Part shown: one piece after another, positions 1 to 5,897 of the stretch
Numbering within the stretch: position 1 is the first letter of the stretch
How the letters are laid out: the number at the start of each line of letters is the position of its first letter
IMG/VR virus record: IMGVR_UViG_3300022758_000044
Span: 1-5,897 of that record
Strand: one strand, 5' to 3'
Source of the DNA: a virus
DNA length: 5,897 nucleotides
Translations under genes and position numbers: made by a program
The notes under the pieces: generated by a model
What the model saw: only the letters and a program-made list of their open reading frames with translations
Told to the model about the DNA's origin: nothing
Databases searched by the model: none

Positions 1-127
1 CCCCAGCCCCATTTGCGCTTGCTGTATCGCTGCTGCTTGTTGTGCTGCCGCGCCGTCGGCTCGACCTGCTTCGGCGCCTCCTGTTTCGCCTTGTGGTGCG
101 CCTGTTGTTGCTCCGCCAGCGCCGCCG
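1..127. repeat. Exact 127-bp direct terminal repeat (1..127 is identical to 5771..5897). It is a circular-contig overlap, so the unit genome is 5770 nt.
   Basis: Base-by-base comparison of the first 127 nt with 5771..5897 shows perfect identity. A length of 127 is typical of de Bruijn assembler k-mer overlaps on circular molecules. Confidence 0.95.
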
Positions 128-465
128 GCGCCACCTCCTCCGTACATGAGGCCTACTGACAGTCCCGCGTCTTCCATTTGTTCGCGCATTGCTGCGTAAC
201 TTTGGTCTTGATACGACCTTTCATACATTTCCATTTGTCGTTTGTACGCGTTTTCTGCAGCCATTTCTCCGTATTCGTAGTTGAGTTTTGCTGCTTGCTC
301 GTTCAGCTCTTTTTGTGCCTCTACTTGGCGCTTCATGCGCTTTTTTGCGCCGATTCCGCCGAATAGCGCGCCAACTGCTCCGGTTATACCCGAAGCGAGT
401 CCGCCTGTTAATCCGTCGGCAGTCGCATTTCCTACGCTATTGAGGAAGTCTCCAAATTTTCCCAT
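1..465 (-). CDS. VP2: N-terminal 155 codons of the same DNA pilot protein, with ATG at 465..463. The full protein is 384 aa (465..1 followed by 5770..5081).
   Basis: Manual minus-strand translation, in frame with the 5782 Met (which corresponds to position 12), gives MGKFGDFLNSVGNATADGLTGGLASGITGAVGALFGGIGAKKRMKRQVEAQKELNEQAAKLNYEYGEMAAENAYKRQMEMYERSYQDQSYAAMREQMEDAGLSVGLMYGGGGAGGAGGATTGAPQGETGGAEAGRADGAAAQQAAIQQAQ-MGLGLV... The first in-frame stop (TAG) is at 513..511 and the first ATG is at 465. The N-terminus is Gly-rich, as is typical of microvirus pilot proteins. Confidence 0.75.
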   Translation of the reverse strand, partial: MGKFGDFLNSVGNATADGLTGGLASGITGAVGALFGGIGAKKRMKRQVEAQKELNEQAAKLNYEYGEMAAENAYKRQMEMYERSYQDQSYAAMREQMEDAGLSVGLMYGGGGAGGAGGATTGAPQGETGGAEAGRADGAAAQQAAAIQQAQMGLG

Positions 466-570
466 ATTGTTCGATTGGTTTAATTTTTTCGCGATTTTTT
501 GTAAAAAAATCTAAAACATACCTTCTTGTTATAAAAGTATAATCGTTCACCAAAAACGATTTTGTTAAAA

Positions 571-592
571 AGGTCGGATTTTAACCCGACCT
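571..592 (-). terminator. Intrinsic-terminator-like hairpin downstream of the 117-aa ORF. On the mRNA strand: AGGUCGG-GUUAAAAU-CCGACCU followed by UUUUAAC.
   Basis: A 7-bp GC-rich inverted repeat (aggtcgg 571-577 / ccgacct 586-592). On the minus (coding) strand it is followed immediately by a TTTT run. A second, weaker stem (aatcgtt 541-547 / aacgatt 555-561) follows it. Confidence 0.5.
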
Positions 593-616
593 GTCAAAAG
601 TTCGTCATGGGTGCGA

Positions 617-970
617 TTATACGGCTGCTCCGTCATGAGGGGTCCCCTTAGGGGTTGCTTCTCCGGCTTCTCGTCCGCTCTGCTTTTCTAGGTTTTCTCC
701 TCCCATGATTTCTTCCGTTTTTGCTGCTTCGGCAAATTTCACGCTGTTGAGCTTCTCCATGGCCGCTTGTGCGATTTCGAATCTGTCTGTACGAATGTCG
801 TATTCAGGAATTACCCCTTTACTTTTCTCCGTGTAAATCATCGGCGCAACCGCTTCGATCGGTTTTTTCTCTTCTGTCGCTTTGCGCAGTTTTACCTCCA
901 GCGGTTCTGCTTCGTAGCTGTCATTTTTGATAATGCCGTGCGTTTGATAGCTGATGTTTTCTTTGTACAT
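617..970 (-). CDS. Hypothetical acidic 117-aa protein. It is a possible internal scaffolding protein (VP3-like).
   Basis: A complete ORF packed between VP1 and the pilot gene on the same strand, with no competing frame. The composition is Glu/Lys-rich and acidic, which is consistent with microvirus scaffolding proteins. No recognisable motif is present, so the function is inferred from position only. Confidence 0.5.
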   Translation of the reverse strand: MYKENISYQTHGIIKNDSYEAEPLEVKLRKATEEKKPIEAVAPMIYTEKSKGVIPEYDIRTDRFEIAQAAMEKLNSVKFAEAAKTEEIMGGENLEKQSGREAGEATPKGTPHDGAAV

Positions 971-1002
971 TTTTAGGCGTTTTTAAGTGTTTTTATATCA
1001 AA

Positions 1003-1020
1003 GTGAGGGTTTCCCCTCAC
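1003..1020 (-). terminator. Stable GNRA-tetraloop hairpin (mRNA: GUGAGGG-GAAA-CCCUCAC) 22 nt downstream of the VP1 stop. It is a candidate partial terminator, attenuator or mRNA-stabilising element.
   Basis: A perfect 7-bp inverted repeat (gtgaggg 1003-1009 / ccctcac 1014-1020) with a 4-nt loop that reads GAAA on the coding strand. It is followed on the mRNA by UUUGAUAU, a short and imperfect U-tract. Confidence 0.45.
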
Positions 1021-1041
1021 CTTGATTGTTTGATTTGATTT

Positions 1042-3033
1042 TTACAGGTTCGGAATTTGTTTTGCTGACATTTTCCGTCGTACGACGCAGTCGATTGCAC
1101 ATTGTACCCAGATGTTTTTTGCTGATAGTTTTGCATCTGCGAATGCTACGTTGTACTTCGTCGGGTCAATATACGTCGTCAGGTCGCTGATTGTTCCTGT
1201 GCTGTCATGTTCGTAGCTTCTGTTCATGGCCATGTGTGCTAGCTCTCTGAATGCAGAGAACGACCCGAACGACTGATCTACGTTAGTCATGTACTCTTGC
1301 CATGCTACTTGCTTTCCGGCTGACCTCCATACTATCGTACCGTCGGCGTTCACTTCTGTGTCGAATGCAGCCATTTCGTCCGTGATCAGCTCTTGAAACG
1401 CAATCCCGTCGAGGTTAGGCTTATGGAAATCATTCATCGTTTGTAGCCTCGTCCACCACTTGTTGCCCTGTGAGTAGTCAACGCGCGGGGTGAAGCTTCC
1501 GATAATCATGATCATCGACGGTTCTCTAATTTTGATCTTGATGCTGTTGCCTCCTCGTGCTCGGCGTTCTGCTCCTCGGCCTGCCAGCGTTCCCAGCGGC
1601 TGATCCTCTGTTGCGCTGTTGCTTACTACTTCGTCGAACACTACTTCTGACGACATTCCGCCGACATACATAGGCGATTCTGCGATTCGCAAGGCTTTTT
1701 CGTCGTATACTACTTCCTGCCATGATTGATAACTCCCATCGCTTACGGCGATTCTGTTCATCATGTCGTAGATTTTTTTCGCGAGTATCAGCGCGTCCAT
1801 TTTTAGCATGCCATCGCTGACATCTACGCTTGTAATATCCGCGATTCCGCCCTCCCCGTCAATCCATTCGGTAGATAGCCAGTTGTTGAATCTGTCGGAG
1901 AGATACGTTTTGATGCCTAACCCCGCTTGATTGAACCACGACGCGTTGCCGTTTGCGTTCGTTTCGTTTACTGTTGCGTCTGCAATACTTGCCGTGTATG
2001 GCAGACTGTTAAGGCTTCCGATGTCGAACGGTGCTGTTTTTGGCGCCGCGAGAATTGCTTCTCGCATTTCGTCGATGTTTGACAACTCGAATTTCGACAA
2101 GCCGATAGTTTCGTTGTCTACTTCGTACGCGCTTTCTCCCGGTTGAAAGTTTGTTGGGTTTGAACTCGATTTTGATGTAAATATCCAGCTGGTTGAGTTT
2201 TTCCCTACCCAGCCTGCCGGCCGTGCATCCCATAGTGCTTTGTTTTTCAAGTCGAACGTTGTACTGCTTTCTGGCGTTATTTTTACGCTTCGCGCTGTGC
2301 TTTCGTTTACTTCGCCGTTGAATATCACGTTGATTCTCCATTCGCCAGTTAATGTCGTTGAACCTACCTCTTGCCACTTCTTTTTGCTGTTTGTTTGATA
2401 CTCCGGCGTTCCGTTTGCATTATATACGGTTATTGTTTTGATCAATCCCTGTCCTTGGGTAATCACGTACCCTACTTCCTCCTGCTTGTTTGCGTAGTAA
2501 TTCTTGTAGGTGTCCCAGTACATGAGCAGAAACATTGCCGGAAATGTTCTCGCAAACGACGTTTCTCCTGTTTTGCTTCGGCCAAGGCCCCGGATTCCCG
2601 TGTATGCCATTAGGCTGTCTTGGCTGATTTGCTGGCTGTTCAAGTCGTCTTTTGTCATGTCCGGCTGATTTGCTCGTAGTTTCATTACCGGTAGTTTGAC
2701 GTTTTGCATTTTCATGCCGATTCCCAGTGCGTTGTTGTGTAACACCCTGATGTACAGCCGTATGGGCGCATGGAAGACATCGATTTGATGTTTCAGTCGT
2801 CCGAATATTGGTCCATTCGTTGGTAGTGTTCGAATTTTTGTCGTCAGGTCGATGTTGTACGTCGTGCCGTTTAGCCCGATGTCGCAGAAGTACGGCACTA
2901 GTGTTCCGATTGCTTGGTCAGTTTTGAATAACTGTCCGATGTTGTGACTACTTCTGTTGAATCCGTGCAGAGTCACGTTCATTTTGCTGCCGGAGCCGAG
3001 CCTCTCGCCTCCGAGTGCTTTTGTGATTGCCAT
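1042..3033 (-). CDS. VP1: Microviridae major capsid protein VP1 (F-like jelly-roll capsid protein), 663 aa.
   Basis: The N-terminal region NVTLHGFNRSSHNIGQLFKTDQAIGTLVPYFCDIGLNGTTYNIDL matches the conserved microvirus VP1 N-terminal signature (H-x-F-[DN]-R-S ... [LI]-[IV]-P-x-F-x-[DE]-x-x-x-[PN]-G-[DT]). At 663 aa it is in the Alpavirinae-like size range and is the largest ORF in the genome. The 6 nt between the upstream ORF stop (3040) and this ATG indicate tight packing. Confidence 0.95.
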   Translation of the reverse strand: MAITKALGGERLGSGSKMNVTLHGFNRSSHNIGQLFKTDQAIGTLVPYFCDIGLNGTTYNIDLTTKIRTLPTNGPIFGRLKHQIDVFHAPIRLYIRVLHNNALGIGMKMQNVKLPVMKLRANQPDMTKDDLNSQQISQDSLMAYTGIRGLGRSKTGETSFARTFPAMFLLMYWDTYKNYYANKQEEVGYVITQGQGLIKTITVYNANGTPEYQTNSKKKWQEVGSTTLTGEWRINVIFNGEVNESTARSVKITPESSTTFDLKNKALWDARPAGWVGKNSTSWIFTSKSSSNPTNFQPGESAYEVDNETIGLSKFELSNIDEMREAILAAPKTAPFDIGSLNSLPYTASIADATVNETNANGNASWFNQAGLGIKTYLSDRFNNWLSTEWIDGEGGIADITSVDVSDGMLKMDALILAKKIYDMMNRIAVSDGSYQSWQEVVYDEKALRIAESPMYVGGMSSEVVFDEVVSNSATEDQPLGTLAGRGAERRARGGNSIKIKIREPSMIMIIGSFTPRVDYSQGNKWWTRLQTMNDFHKPNLDGIAFQELITDEMAAFDTEVNADGTIVWRSAGKQVAWQEYMTNVDQSFGSFSAFRELAHMAMNRSYEHDSTGTISDLTTYIDPTKYNVAFADAKLSAKNIWVQCAIDCVVRRKMSAKQIPNL

Positions 3034-3039
3034 GTTTTT

Positions 3040-3399
3040 CTACTTTTTTTTCGTTCGATTTTGTGTTTCCCATGCGTCGCGATACACTGCCGTGGCGATA
3101 AAAATTAGGTCCCATCCTTTTTCGTCCACTGCTTTCTGTGCTGCTTCGATGGTTTTGTATTTTTCCGGGCTTACAGCCTGTCCGGCCAGCACCAGTGTAT
3201 ACCCTTCCTTTCGTTTTCCAACGGCGTAGAACGGCCCGCGTTTGAGCGGCGCCCAATCGAAATTTTCGACTTTTTCCGTCGTTTCTTTCACTTCAGAAGA
3301 GTTTGAGCTGTTCAGGAGCTCTCTGAATTTCCCCGATTCTTCTGATTGTGTGCACGTACGTGCCGTAAGGTTCTTTTTGCTCGATGATTTTTGTGCCAT
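3040..3399 (-). CDS. Hypothetical protein, 119 aa from the first ATG. The true start may instead be the GTG at 3291..3289, giving 83 aa.
   Basis: An ORF ending 6 nt before the VP1 ATG. The C-terminal two-thirds (FDWAPLKRGPFYAVGKRKEGYTLVLAGQAVSPEKYKTIEAAQKAVDEKGWDLIFIATAVYRDAWE) looks like a folded domain. The N-terminal 36 aa are low-complexity Ser/Lys and overlap the 66-aa ORF in another frame. A GTG lies 2 nt after that ORF's TGA. Confidence 0.5.
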   Translation of the reverse strand: MAQKSSSKKNLTARTCTQSEESGKFRELLNSSNSSEVKETTEKVENFDWAPLKRGPFYAVGKRKEGYTLVLAGQAVSPEKYKTIEAAQKAVDEKGWDLIFIATAVYRDAWETQNRTKKK

Positions 3400-3493
3400 A
3401 GCTTTTGTAAATTTTGTTAGTTAGTTGTTGTTTTGACCATATCACCCCGTCCTCGTCTACGTATGTAACCGGGAGATATTTTTTTGTTTTCAT
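3293..3493 (-). CDS. Hypothetical small protein, 66 aa.
   Basis: A complete ORF whose ATG (3493..3491) lies 1 nt after the TAA of the preceding 67-aa ORF (TAAcATG), typical of translationally coupled phage genes. The sequence is non-repetitive and protein-like (MKTKKYLPVTYVDEDGVIWSKQQLTNKIYKSYGTKIIEQKEPYGTYVHTIRRIGEIQRAPEQLKLF). Confidence 0.5.
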   Translation of the reverse strand: MKTKKYLPVTYVDEDGVIWSKQQLTNKIYKSYGTKIIEQKEPYGTYVHTIRRIGEIQRAPEQLKLF

Positions 3494-3494
3494 G

Positions 3495-3698
3495 TTAGTA
3501 CGCTGCGTTGTTTGTTTTTGTTTTTATCCACATCTCTACCGAGTCTGTGTGTAAGCCTTTTTTGTGCAATATGTAACTTGCACTACAGCTCGTGAACGTC
3601 AGTATTATTGTCACAAGCAAAGCAATTATCGAGATAATCACTTTCGCCCATGTCGGCTTTGTCTTTGCCCAGTTCAGAAATTTCGTGATGTATTCCAT
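3495..3698 (-). CDS. Small single-pass membrane protein, 67 aa. It is a candidate lysis protein (phiX174 E-like amurin or holin-like).
   Basis: An amphipathic N-terminus followed by a clean 19-residue hydrophobic helix (VIISIIALLVTIILTFTSC) and a short polar, basic C-tail. It overlaps the 3' end of the 112-aa ORF by 116 nt in a different frame (overprinted arrangement). Confidence 0.5.
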   Translation of the reverse strand: MEYITKFLNWAKTKPTWAKVIISIIALLVTIILTFTSCSASYILHKKGLHTDSVEMWIKTKTNNAAY

Positions 3699-3921
3699 AG
3701 CGTAATAGTTCTTCTTTGATTTGATTTAATTTGTACTCGGTTGTCCAGATGTCTTTTAATAGAGACTCTTTTTTGAGGAGGAGCTCGCCCCAGCTCTGGC
3801 GCAGATTTTTGATTTTCCATTCTTTGTTTGTCATAGTGATGTTGTTTTCTGCAAATGTATAAAACTTTTTCCTTATAATCCAAATTTTTTGCGGCTTTTT
3901 TTGTATTTTTTTAAGTTCCAT
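3583..3921 (-). CDS. Hypothetical protein, 112 aa from the ATG at 3921 (overlapping the Rep 3' end by 49 nt), or 84 aa from the ATG at 3834.
   Basis: An ORF on the gene strand immediately after Rep. Its central region is coiled-coil-like (KEWKIKNLRQSWGELLLKKESLLKDIWTTEYKLNQIKEELLRYG). The start codon is ambiguous and there is no SD to arbitrate. Confidence 0.4.
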   Translation of the reverse strand: MELKKIQKKPQKIWIIRKKFYTFAENNITMTNKEWKIKNLRQSWGELLLKKESLLKDIWTTEYKLNQIKEELLRYGIHHEISELGKDKADMGESDYLDNCFACDNNTDVHEL

Positions 3922-4811
3922 GGTTCCGCAGGATAACCGAGAGCTACGTTTTCGTCTTGTCTGTATTTTAGTGCTTGGTCGTACTCTCGTTCGCCCTCCA
4001 TTGTTGACACGTCGATTTTTTCACCTCTGACGTATCGCGTTTGTTTGTTGAGTTTTTGTAGCCATAGTTGTTCGCGTTCCTCGTCTGTCCATAGTTTGTT
4101 CCGATAGTATATTGGTAAGGCTAGTTTTTGCCCTGCCGGCGTTTTGTAATACTCTCGTGTGTTTTCTCCTTGAAACTTATTGAGTCTTGCGTCGTATCTG
4201 TTTAGCCACCCTTTTCCTAGTCCTTTTGATGCGAATACTTTGCTTGTAAATCCTGAGTGTGCCGTGTCTACCTTGCTTACATATTTCACGCAGTATCCCA
4301 CTGACCTGTCGTTTACGTACTCTCCTGTGTCCACCCATCCGTATCCCCATATTTCTTCGATTTCTGCGGCACTTTTTGTTGTCCATAGAAAGCCGTGTAA
4401 GTGCAGCCTTTCTGTGCTTTTGTGAAACTCTGCTCTTTTTCCGTGGCCCAATTCCGTGACGAGCCAATGTTTGATTGATTCGTTGTATTTCTTAATCCAT
4501 CGCTTTCCAAATAGCTTGATAGCTCGGGCTGCTATCTCGTTCGGGTCTTCTGTTTTGCATTCTTTTTCCAGTTTATCGAGTGCTTCGTTGCTGAAGGTCA
4601 TTGTCATGAAGAGTGCCCGCGCGTCGTCTTTCAATTCTTCGTGTAGTCGCACTTGCCACTCGCGCGCTTTTTTTTGACGGCATTCTATGCATTTTCCGCA
4701 TCCGAAAGGTACTGCTTTTACGCGTGCGTCCGGCGCCTCTGGTACAAAGCCGCCGTTTTTCCGATTTGGCAAATATTTTGGGTTTGTCCCTATCCTGCTA
4801 TACAGGCACAT
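3873..4811 (-). CDS. VP4: Microviridae replication initiation protein VP4 (HUH rolling-circle endonuclease, phiX174 gpA family), 313 aa, with the start refined to the ATG at 4811..4809.
   Basis: Motif I is FMTMTF, motif II is HLHGFLW (HUH), and motif III is YCVKYVSK (two catalytic Tyr; compare phiX174 gpA YVAKYVNK). The N-terminus MCLYSRIGTNPKY...PFGCGKCIECRQKK matches the microvirus VP4 start (MC...P[CF]G.C..CR). The 148 codons upstream in the track ORF (4812..5255) are an Arg-rich translation of a GC-rich non-coding region and are excluded. Confidence 0.93.
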   Translation of the reverse strand: MCLYSRIGTNPKYLPNRKNGGFVPEAPDARVKAVPFGCGKCIECRQKKAREWQVRLHEELKDDARALFMTMTFSNEALDKLEKECKTEDPNEIAARAIKLFGKRWIKKYNESIKHWLVTELGHGKRAEFHKSTERLHLHGFLWTTKSAAEIEEIWGYGWVDTGEYVNDRSVGYCVKYVSKVDTAHSGFTSKVFASKGLGKGWLNRYDARLNKFQGENTREYYKTPAGQKLALPIYYRNKLWTDEEREQLWLQKLNKQTRYVRGEKIDVSTMEGEREYDQALKYRQDENVALGYPAEPWNLKKYKKSRKKFGL

Positions 4812-4833
4812 ATTGATGATGATAACACTGTAG
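4809..4833 (+). promoter_or_regulatory. Candidate viral-strand replication origin. It is a 25-nt segment, cacatattgatgatgataacactgtag, similar to the phiX174 gpA origin CAACTTG|ATATTAATAACACTATAG. The TTG|AT nick dinucleotide is conserved.
   Basis: An ungapped alignment gives 19/25 identities, including the complete ATAACACT core and the TTGAT nick-site context. It lies at the 5' end of rep, where phiX174 has its ori inside gene A. The match is on the window + strand, antisense to the genes. The comparison is to the phiX174 ori as recalled from memory. Confidence 0.35.
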
Positions 4834-5080
4834 GTATATACTAATCGCGCTGCCGTTAAGAATGGCCGAGTAATGATTTCCGGTGCCGAAGAAATCGCGG
4901 ACGCGAGTTCGAGGCCCTGAAATCGCGCAGGCCGTTTAGGCGCGCAGTTCTCGCGCTCGAAAGTACCGCCTTTCGAAGCGTATAGTAATTGTTGTGAAGG
5001 CAGAGCGGTTGCCCGCCCTGCCTTGCTTGCGCGTTGTGACTTGTTGCGTGTGTGCGCGTGTCTGACACGTGCGCGCGCGC
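4812..5080. promoter_or_regulatory. Structured GC-rich intergenic region between the pilot stop and the Rep start. It is a candidate complementary-strand origin or primosome assembly site, or a Rep/host-factor binding region, and presumably holds the rep promoter.
   Basis: The region is about 58-60% GC, against about 47% for the rest of the genome. Hairpins occur at 4875-4896, 4953-4980 and 4999-5022 (a 10-bp stem; on the coding strand the loop is a GNRA GCAA tetraloop). There is a perfect 13-bp palindrome cgtgtcTgacacg at 5057-5069, flanked by alternating purine-pyrimidine tracts (5046-5062, and (GC)5 at 5071-5080). A direct repeat GAAATCGCG occurs at 4891-4899 and 4919-4927, with TAATCGCG at 4842-4849. 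No ORF here has a credible composition. Confidence 0.55.
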
Positions 5081-5897
5081 TTACCAAATCATTCGCGCCA
5101 CAGGTTTTCCGTCGGCGCCGTATATTGTAGGCACATCCACTTTTTTGACAGCGTTTTGCGGACCTCGGAGCGCTTTGGCTCCCGCCTTGAAGCCAATGAT
5201 TCGCCCGGCAATGTCCGTGAGCATCTGTGCCCCTTGCGCTGCGTAATCTGCCCATGTTTTCCAGTTTGTGTATTCGCCTGTTTCGAAGAGCGTCGCCAGC
5301 TCTTTGGCTTTCGCTTCCAGCATGCGCGCATCTGCGTTTTTCGCCGCCGCTAGTGCTTCCATGTACACGTATTTCTTTTTCTCTGTGTTCAGTTCGGCGA
5401 GTGCTTTGGCTGCTGCTGCGTTTTGCTGTCGTTCGTAGATTTGCGCCTGCGTGTTTAGCACGTCTTGCGTTCCCTGTCGTGATTTTAGGCGACGTCCGAT
5501 AATCGAGTGTTCTCCAAACATGTCGTCGTATGCGTCGAGTCTGTCCTTTTCGTTTCCTTCGAAAGCGTCGTCGAAGTAGCTTTCCAGATTTCGAATATAC
5601 TCGCCTTTTCCTCTCTCGAAGAGCTCCCGATATTTGACTGGTCGCATTTGCATTTCCGTGATTTTCTGTTCGGTGATGTTCTCTGCTTCTGCTCGCTGTT
5701 TTGCTGCTGCTGCGTTGATTTCGTCAATCTGTGCATCTTTCACTGCAAGGTCTTTTTTCATCGATACGAGCCCCAGCCCCATTTGCGCTTGCTGTATCGC
5801 TGCTGCTTGTTGTGCTGCCGCGCCGTCGGCTCGACCTGCTTCGGCGCCTCCTGTTTCGCCTTGTGGTGCGCCTGTTGTTGCTCCGCCAGCGCCGCCG
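5081..5897 (-). CDS. VP2: Microviridae DNA pilot / minor capsid protein (VP2-like), C-terminal part. The reading frame runs open off the window end and continues, by circular wrap, into 1..465.
   Basis: A 233-aa ORF (5081..5782) rich in Ala/Gln/Glu coiled-coil sequence (AAAAKQRAEAENITEQ... QQNAAAAKALAELNTEKKKY). The frame stays open upstream through the 127-bp repeat. The gene sits between VP1 and Rep, as in gokushovirus-like and Alpavirinae-like genomes. The stop codon TAA is at 5081..5083. Confidence 0.8.
   Translation of the reverse strand, partial: GGAGGATTGAPQGETGGAEAGRADGAAAQQAAAIQQAQMGLGLVSMKKDLAVKDAQIDEINAAAAKQRAEAENITEQKITEMQMRPVKYRELFERGKGEYIRNLESYFDDAFEGNEKDRLDAYDDMFGEHSIIGRRLKSRQGTQDVLNTQAQIYERQQNAAAAKALAELNTEKKKYVYMEALAAAKNADARMLEAKAKELATLFETGEYTNWKTWADYAAQGAQMLTDIAGRIIGFKAGAKALRGPQNAVKKVDVPTIYGADGKPVARMIW

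Follow-up and report, generated by a model that had tools for sequence, protein, structure and literature searches.

The closest described counterparts of the element treated here are the single-strand origins (ssos) of rolling-circle plasmids (ssoA, ssoU, ssoT and ssoW) and sso1 of ICEBs1, which are non-coding stretches of 100-200 nt with extensive intrastrand pairing that matters only in single-stranded DNA (ssDNA). Their orientation with respect to the nick site is fixed; folding occurs only in the single-stranded state, and RNA polymerase or primase of the host is recruited to them (PMC4595007). Their specificity is for the host and not for Rep, and they are exchanged among replicons with unrelated Reps. 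In rolling-circle plasmids the sso usually lies directly 5' of the nick site or double-strand origin. Among the Microviridae, packaged-strand intergenic hairpins for host priming are known from phiX174 (the n'/PriA hairpin in the F-G intergenic region) and from G4 (hairpins used by DnaG), the complementary-strand origin (c-ori) of G4 consisting of three short hairpins. Outside the phiX174/G4 group no microvirus c-ori is known to have been mapped, though these phages dominate gut ssDNA viromes. Here, a candidate is described in the IMG/VR virus record IMGVR_UViG_3300022758_000044, of which positions 1 to 5,897 were analysed (the whole of this 5,897-nt stretch is termed the window). The element, termed the cassette, occupies ~4826-4990 on the + strand, opposite the genes, within the non-coding block between the VP2/pilot and Rep genes. 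Genomes used for comparison are given as L followed by a number.

The chances are judged to be about balanced that the cassette is a host-dependent, modular, sso-like complementary-strand origin on the packaged strand. Like the plasmid ssos it is non-coding and of similar size (130-190 nt across its carriers), pairs extensively within one strand, keeps a strict orientation relative to a nick-site-like motif and has passed among replicons with unrelated Reps; in temperate relatives it also lies just 5' of an origin-like element. Unlike them, it has no plasmid sequence similarity and is carried by microviruses of probable Bacteroidota hosts. The likeness is one of structure, orientation and exchange, and an sso function is here a proposal. 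The hairpins of phiX174 and G4 have the role proposed for the cassette; however, the comparison with these two origins that the earlier note on this DNA had suggested gave no sequence similarity and no detectable architectural homology, and a 99-nt rod plus a 29-nt hairpin stands against a hairpin of ~55 nt in phiX174. The cassette further differs from both in its place before rep and, in the window's clade, in lying on the strand opposite the genes. Long imperfect ssDNA hairpins are also read by host RNA polymerase as promoters for a primer in the minus-strand origin of the Ff phages (M13/f1) and in Frpo of the F plasmid. The stem-flanked TATATA box of the cassette invites this comparison, but no -35/-10 pair could be placed inside its stems, and the probable Bacteroidota hosts use another promoter consensus. 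Within the Microviridae, conserved rep-adjacent intergenic hairpins with compensatory substitutions have been described as possible (-)-strand start sites in reekeekee- and roodoodooviruses (PMC9865509). Their sequences are unrelated to the cassette and were described on the coding strand, with neither exchange of cassettes nor a flip of strand reported.

To describe the structure, the cassettes of different carriers were aligned. On the + strand of the window, the core comprises a TATATA box, a 99-nt rod-like hairpin and a 29-nt hairpin (Table 1). The order across carriers is a small hairpin with the TATATA box, a variable domain I, hairpin II and an AGTAWTAY flank. For variant B of domain I, the form found in the window, RNAalifold predicted 36 pairs from eight sequences. 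Over the whole variant B structure, 98.7% of the cells were paired and 10 of the 47 pairs showed compensatory changes, compared to 2.9 in shuffles (0/500 reaching this) and at most 1 in slid controls. Within domain I, G·T was conserved at four positions and A·C at none, and the non-Watson-Crick cells amounted to ~30 G·T versus 0 A·C on the cassette strand. Since the non-Watson-Crick pairs were almost all G·T on the + strand, only this strand forms the complete rod (-22.3 kcal/mol versus -19.3 kcal/mol for the minus strand, which loses the outer helix). Variant A of domain I is Y-shaped, with compensatory changes in 9 of 39 pairs among 73 sequences. In other lineages, the 5' mini-hairpin forms a covarying 5-bp stem, CACCGR...YCGG, immediately 5' of the TATATA box, its pair 16/23 being GC in 37 sequences and AU in 34; the window's own mini-hairpin (4827-4835) has no predicted stability. 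The structure of the cassette is conserved and strand-specific.

The variant A cassettes also contain a triloop hairpin, GACGC-GNA-GCGTC, in which the G and A of the loop are invariant and N is any of the four bases. It bears the signature of the d(GCGNAGC) mini-hairpin reportedly described by Hirao and Yoshizawa. The C-GNA-G triloop is a hallmark of DNA, in which it is unusually stable. Such triloops recurred in single-strand elements of the window, of variant A cassettes and of L007 (3440-3470), namely GATTTTTT-GTA-AAAAAATC (493-511), ACT-GTA-GGT (4827-4835), ACC-GCA-GGT and GACGC-GNA-GCGTC.

Of the functions offered for the block in the earlier note, the c-ori was the best supported, and the covariation preserving the stems that it had proposed to look for was present as compensatory changes. 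The strand was not as supposed, however: the gene strand had been taken as the viral strand, whereas the conserved structures form on the other one. The three AATCGCG copies (at 4843, 4893 and 4921, spaced 50 and 28 nt) were also confirmed, though not as iterons. The motif occurs five times in the whole window against 1.8 expected (5/200 shuffles reached 5), and in the block it is not conserved in L001 or L005, relatives having TATCGCG and AACCGCG in its place. As the copies are arms of stems and are altered in close relatives, and no regular repeats are conserved, an iteron array was ruled out. Genuine iteron-like arrays, without parallel in the window, were seen in pig microviruses (MT135441 and MG945229, 6.2-7.1 kb) as two to three tandem ~34-nt repeats, GCATCTCTCGGTAGTAACTTCCTGCACATAGCGTT, upstream of rep (L003 ~1965-2040 on the minus strand; L004 6850-6960); L004 has in addition four CGCGCCACCCAGCAT-like repeats.

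The distribution of the cassette was then determined. Short pieces of the block matched non-coding DNA upstream of rep in pig microviruses that are only distantly related, oriented the other way round with respect to that gene. The 20-mer TCGAAAGTACCGNCTTTCGA from hairpin II (+ strand, 4957-4976) was present in 87 IMG/VR microvirus stretches and a slightly longer version in 43 metagenome contigs, mostly from the human gut, giving about 130 gut microvirus contigs with the cassette in total. A search with a relaxed hairpin II loop found no new variants. Only two GenBank phage records contained the cassette, both unannotated. The carriers fall into at least three lineages: a majority lineage, a temperate prophage lineage and the window's clade. 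In the majority lineage, the order is cassette, 66-aa open reading frame (ORF), Rep and VP1; the 66-aa ORF (MDYFDFRPR...AWFADE) is conserved in L014 (2100-2300) and its homologues. Between the window and the majority lineage, Rep is 29% identical over 157 aa and VP1 lacks significant similarity, whereas the cassette shows 96-97% identity over 140 nt. Variants A and B each occur both in the window's clade and in the other lineages. From these comparisons, the cassette has evidently been exchanged between lineages, and as it moves among replicons with divergent Reps it most likely depends on a host factor and not on Rep. Replacement by unrelated sequence in a close relative, which the earlier note had counted against a function, was found once: L007, with a Rep 93% identical to that of the window, has a third, unrelated module in the place of the cassette. 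L007 nevertheless keeps the neighbouring purine-pyrimidine (Pu-Py) hairpin, and the replacement looks like cassette exchange, as with plasmid ssos, and not like a loss of function. One contig, L150 (ERZ1024489 NODE_2, 8343 nt), carries the cassette and VP2 region twice (at 5176 and 7830), through either a tandem partial duplication or assembly of a multimer.

In the temperate relatives, the order is VP2, cassette, an origin-hairpin-like element, Pu-Py hairpin, a Bacteroidota-type promoter, a dif-like phage attachment site (attP) and Rep, with the cassette ~15 nt 5' of the origin-hairpin-like element and ~490 nt from the attP. These T-rich prophages lie in Bacteroidota-like contigs of up to 111 kb (L127, L139, L141, L143, L152 and L156), flanked by dif-like sites with the Escherichia coli XerD arm TTATGTTAAAT, which in L127 are at ~5060-5090 and ~10930-10960. 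One chromosomal site was occupied by prophages in both orientations (L127 versus L139). No prophage copies were found among 185,579 representative genomes, the five matches being chance matches inside coding genes.

A further strand-specific element was present in the AT-rich gap upstream of VP2 (window 467-616). This gap is conserved throughout the A-rich clade to which the window belongs, on the non-coding strand, and contains CYTTG(A/T)TA(A/T)TAT...GCGTA. In the window, the origin-like motif at 518-545 is preceded by the triloop hairpin at 493-511. It aligns with the viral-strand origin of phiX174, CAACTTG^ATATTAATAAC, the only case in which the nick motif has been mapped experimentally; at the nick site (caret), the window reads CTTG^TTATAAAAG compared to CAACTTG^ATATTAATA. 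A hairpin motif found family-wide, (C)TACTTG(A/T)TA, matches the mapped phiX174 nick site and always lies on the T-rich strand. In SpV4, Chp2, phiMH2K, L109 and L110, the motif lies on the coding strand in hairpin loops of 11-18 nt closed by stems of 9-14 bp; phiX174 and the majority lineage also carry it on that strand (e.g. in a hairpin loop of L014). No description of a family-wide (C)TACTTG(A/T)T hairpin was found in the searchable literature. In the T-rich relatives L109 and L110, the motif stands on the coding strand ahead of VP2, and L109 has the full gene order of the A-rich clade, which carries it at the same place on the non-coding strand. Because the same place bears the motif on opposite strands, its explanation as a promoter fails.

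The strand of this motif was consistent by several measures. Across 22 A-rich genomes, the non-coding strand held 28 copies of CTTGATA and the coding strand one, compared to a ratio of ~2:1 predicted from composition. The best hit of a position weight matrix, which was partly built from some of the scored sequences, lay on the non-coding strand of 16/17 A-rich genomes, and by alignment the motif was on that strand in all. With the same caveat, the cassette strand was the strand of the best hit in 70/71 T-rich and 6/6 A-rich genomes (76/77). Two other sites were considered and set aside. The stretch 4809-4833 agrees with the origin of phiX174 in 19/25 nucleotides, a level that 0/200 shuffles reached, but comparable matches occur on the gene strand and the conserved motif lies elsewhere (518-545), so it was set aside as a candidate nick site. 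The test is itself ambiguous, since the gap at 971-1041 also matches the phiX174 origin (18/30), with a gene-strand hairpin, GGTGAGGGGAAACCCTCACT, followed by TTGATATAAAAACAC. As a clade-wide nick box, GGTATATA showed no consistent pattern in the wider A-rich clade.

Base composition divides the carriers in the same way. Of the IMG/VR genomes, 84 carry the cassette on their coding strand, which is T-rich (AT skew -0.18). Members of the window's clade have it on the non-coding strand, and in them the coding strand is A-rich (AT skew +0.35 to +0.37). Four-fold sites have the frequencies A.109, C.268, G.145 and T.478 in the former group and A.435, C.192, G.279 and T.093 in the latter, a near-exact complement; the former pattern is the one usual for microviruses. 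In 43 independent metagenome contigs, the cassette strand never had an excess of A (AT skew at most 0.01). In those of microvirus size or smaller it was T-rich (-0.10 to -0.37), with skews of -0.10 to -0.21 where the genes are on the same strand and -0.30 to -0.37 where they are opposite. GenBank genomes with a VP1 35-55% identical to that of the window were A-rich in 7/7 sampled cases, and more distant ones T-rich. The cassette is thus co-oriented with the origin-like motif and with the T-rich strand. The genome L012 (IMGVR_UViG_3300016457_000340) has a four-fold C of.033 and a GC skew of +0.54 on its coding strand, and its best motif hit, CTATTACTTGATAATATAAC, is on the non-coding strand.

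Not every measure of strand was usable. ssDNA phages prefer NNT codons, which has been attributed to C-to-T deamination of the single strand (PMC3278643); phiX174, Chp2 and SpV4 conform to this preference and phiMH2K does not. This isolated gokushovirus, a Bdellovibrio phage (L117), has four-fold frequencies of A.45, C.23, G.07 and T.25, with its origin-like hairpin on the coding strand. An A-rich genome with a coding-strand origin-like hairpin undermines AT skew alone as a marker of polarity. The asymmetry in folding energy of whole intergenic regions was also discarded as a strand test, being too noisy, with L014 and L009 the wrong way.

Under the proposed mechanism, the packaged strand would fold at the cassette into the TATATA-flanked 99-nt rod and 29-nt hairpin, which would work only when single-stranded. 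A priming enzyme of the Bacteroidota-like host (RNA polymerase, primase or a PriA-type primosome) would recognise the folded cassette, and complementary-strand synthesis would start there after infection and during rolling-circle replication. The cassette would have to be on the strand that Rep nicks and displaces, which here would be the one with the origin-like CTTG^TTATA motif at 518-545; it would follow that this clade packages the complement of its coding strand. We infer the priming function, the involvement of a host factor and the identity of the packaged strand from these comparisons. The Pu-Py hairpin on the same strand is probably part of the same single-strand control region. The cassette is distinct from the presumed Rep nick site (518-545) and from the attachment site, a separate dif-like sequence absent from the window. 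These phages provide a 165-nt c-ori candidate of defined structure with natural variants (A, B and the third module), and such modules move between unrelated microviruses as plasmid ssos do.

The window's clade is a large, gut-associated and Alpavirinae-like one within the Microviridae, with the gene order Rep, small ORFs, VP1, a hypothetical ORF and VP2, and has 132 VP1 relatives in GenBank. It is abundant in gut samples from humans, pigs and dogs. It is considered fairly probable that this clade packages the antisense strand and thus comprises 'negative-sense' ssDNA phages. The nick motif, the cassette and the Pu-Py hairpin are all on the non-coding strand, and these three independent cis elements, together with the mutational skew, point to the anti-gene strand as the packaged one throughout the clade. 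According to Roux et al. 2012 (PMC3394797), one ORF was the sole exception to the absence of reported complementary-strand genes in Microviridae, and searches of the literature for microviruses of negative sense or reversed skew gave no published account of such a polarity. A parallel is provided by mitochondria, in which inversion of the control region reverses the strand skew at synonymous sites (PMC13602327). There too a flipped origin region changes which strand is single-stranded and mirrors the skew, although in an organelle with a double-stranded DNA genome and not in a virus with packaged ssDNA. If the polarity is as proposed, transcription in this clade would meet the rolling-circle forks head-on, it would be wrong to describe the Microviridae as uniformly positive-sense, strand assignments would be reversed in thousands of database genomes, and the (C)TACTTG(A/T)TA hairpin motif would be a practical marker for orienting metagenomic microvirus genomes.

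Several points weigh against the cassette as an sso-like origin. It has no sequence similarity to characterised ssos, the phiX174 n' site, the G4 oric, Rfam families or plasmids, a BLAST search of PLSDB giving no plasmid match. Its position in the majority lineage falls within what is likely the 5' leader of the small-ORF/Rep operon, where an RNA-level role is possible, and on the + strand of the window it is preceded by sigma-70-like hexamers. The orientation rule rests on essentially one evolutionary flip, that of one clade compared to the rest, and exchange via conserved flanks would keep the orientation automatically. The origin motif to which the orientation refers is mapped by experiment only in phiX174, and priming by the cassette is a candidate function drawn from comparative data.

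Of the alternatives, a structured RNA seems rather unlikely. Such an RNA would form the 5' leader of the Rep operon in the majority lineage; in the window's clade it would be a ~230-nt non-coding RNA of the + strand, divergent from rep. The G·U pairs and covariation suit RNA as well as DNA, and in the majority lineage the cassette is preceded by a terminator-like hairpin with a T-run and followed by the small ORF and Rep. The sigma-70-like hexamers in the window, TTGATG-18-TATACT at 4813-4842 on the + strand, also speak for an RNA, but the -35 region is unconserved and the likely Bacteroidota hosts use TTTG/TAnnTTTG, which is present near the prophage attR and absent before the cassette. The RNA of the window's clade would be directed away from rep and have neither a terminator nor a downstream gene; an RNA-level role fits this clade poorly. 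No Rfam family was matched, the C-GNA-G triloops are characteristic of DNA, and the coincidence of the cassette strand with the origin-motif strand and the T-rich strand would be left unexplained. An element of the packaged strand that depends on Rep and has no part in priming is unlikely. It could be an auxiliary Rep-binding site, an enhancer of termination or re-initiation of rolling-circle replication, or a packaging signal. Its position would suit such an element, on the strand of the origin-like motif, adjoining rep and, in the temperate relatives, the origin-like hairpin, as would the lineage-specific small hairpin and TATATA part beside an exchangeable domain I, and the phiX174-like match at 4809-4833 (19/25, unreached in 200 shuffles). 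Dependence on Rep is difficult to reconcile, however, with a domain I and hairpin II that are 96-97% identical where the Reps are only 29% identical. No repeated binding sites are conserved, and the family-wide nick motif lies elsewhere, at 518-545. Packaging in Microviridae is coupled to replication, and we know of no packaging signal in this family.

The remaining two explanations were given far less weight. That the long hairpin is a folded single-stranded attP for XerC/D integration, as in CTXphi, is suggested by the cassette-carrying prophages with flanking dif-like sites (TTATGTTAAAT arm), and Xer/dif use has been proposed for Bacteroidetes microvirus prophages, some with a second, inverted dif-like site (PMC3091885). 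Mapping of the prophage junctions largely refuted this: the crossover is in the separate dif-like sequence ~490 nt away and the cassette is intact inside the prophage. Most carriers show no sign of integration, the representative genomes contained no prophage copy, and the window has no 28-nt dif-like site, even at up to 3 mismatches, making an attP very improbable. An ordinary gene-strand intergenic region, with a VP2 terminator, a rep promoter and a 5' untranslated region whose hairpins are incidental to high GC, is equally hard to credit. The pairing of the 4997-5024 hairpin is indeed better on the gene strand, where it may be a 3' element of a transcript, and the palindromic TATATA box could be part of a rep promoter. 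Incidental hairpins would not be expected to show covariation distinct from shuffles or near-identity across unrelated lineages; moreover, the main structures fold on the other strand, and no intrinsic terminator was detected.

Table 1. Features of the window and of the genomes compared with it (+, strand opposite the genes of the window; -, gene strand; the caret corresponds to the nick position).
Feature	Position	Strand	Description
Cassette 5' end	4827..4840	+	Degenerate mini-hairpin ACT-GTA-GGT; TATATA box at 4835-4840; from alignments
Domain I, variant B	4847..4945	+	99-nt imperfect rod, apical loop GGAC; holds all three AATCGCG copies
Hairpin II	4953..4981	+	11-bp stem, bulged A, invariant loop TACCGY
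Cassette 3' flank	4982..4989	+	ATAGTAAT in the window; consensus A-A/G-AGTAWTAY; from alignments
Origin-like motif ATACCTTCTTG^TTATAAAAGTATAATCG	518..545	+	Non-coding strand, upstream of VP2; CTTG at 525-528
(C)TACTTG(A/T)T hairpins	L119 (Chp2) 2904-2945; L118 (SpV4) 511-545; L117 (phiMH2K) 3297-3340		Candidate Rep nick hairpin
(C)TACTTG(A/T)T hairpins	L109 2054-2086; L110 2980-3010		Candidate Rep nick hairpin
Pu-Py hairpin	5046..5080	+	16-17 bp, 4 G·T, loop T(5063); abuts VP2 stop, includes palindrome and (GC)5
GC-rich hairpin	4997..5024	-	12-bp arms, loop GCAA; -13.3 (gene strand) versus -11.3 kcal/mol (+)
Non-coding block	4812..5080		Between VP2/pilot stop (5081-5083) and Rep ATG (4811-4809)
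Rep (VP4) gene	3873..4811	-	Adjoins block; Pfam PF23343 (REP_ORF2-G2P), E = 2.6e-10
VP2/pilot gene, 3' part	5081..5770	-	From ORF map; runs over circle junction to ATG at 466

The window holds a complete circular microvirus genome (5770 nt), with 5771-5897 duplicating 1-127. Every gene is on the minus strand, in the order VP2/pilot, Rep, several small ORFs, VP1 (3033 to 1042; Pfam Phage_F) and a 117-aa ORF. The counterpart of VP2 in the relative MG945515 (88.5% identical) is annotated 'similar to VP2'. The genome had been described as otherwise tightly packed, but two further non-coding gaps were present, at 467-616 (150 nt) and 971-1041 (71 nt). As noted earlier, the block at 4812-5080 is higher in GC than the genome (0.558 versus 0.473), unevenly so: 0.27 at 4812-4845, 0.57 at 4846-4990 and 0.66 at 4991-5080. 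Its non-coding nature was confirmed by the ORF map and by MG945515, in which the frame that runs open into Rep in the window has two stop codons, ruling out a hidden protein or an N-terminal extension of Rep. An Arg-rich 70-aa ORF in the block is replaced in a variant A relative. The strong stem-loops that had been noticed are real, the block folding better than shuffled sequence, with z-scores of -4.9 for the + strand and -3.5 for the gene strand. No tRNA or tmRNA was found in the block, and an Rfam scan of it gave no family, only a chance match to mir-466 (E = 5.7); variants A, B and C had no Rfam match at E up to 1.

The 13-nt palindrome CGTGTCTGACACG (5056-5068) and the (GC)5 tract beside the pilot stop codon (5071-5080) were both present as originally seen, the palindrome forming the tip of the Pu-Py hairpin. 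This hairpin has an energy of -15.0 kcal/mol on the + strand versus -7.4 kcal/mol on the gene strand, forming a single stem only on the + strand and fragments on the other. Folding on the + strand only was repeated in the A-rich-clade genomes L001, L007, L103 (15-bp stem) and L008 (12-bp stem), and in the T-rich pig viruses L003 and L004 an equivalent Pu-Py hairpin folds on the coding strand. A search of IMG/VR for the hairpin returned only the window's own clade. For the GC-rich hairpin, which had been reported with a GNRA loop, the stem (10-12 bp) and the GCAA loop were found on the gene strand as described, but the loop is ACAG in MG945515. One pair that is G·T when read on the gene strand becomes A·C on the other, and in L007 its place is taken by a different hairpin followed by TTTCCTTCT. 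This hairpin is probably an RNA-level 3' element of the VP2 transcript and lies outside the cassette.

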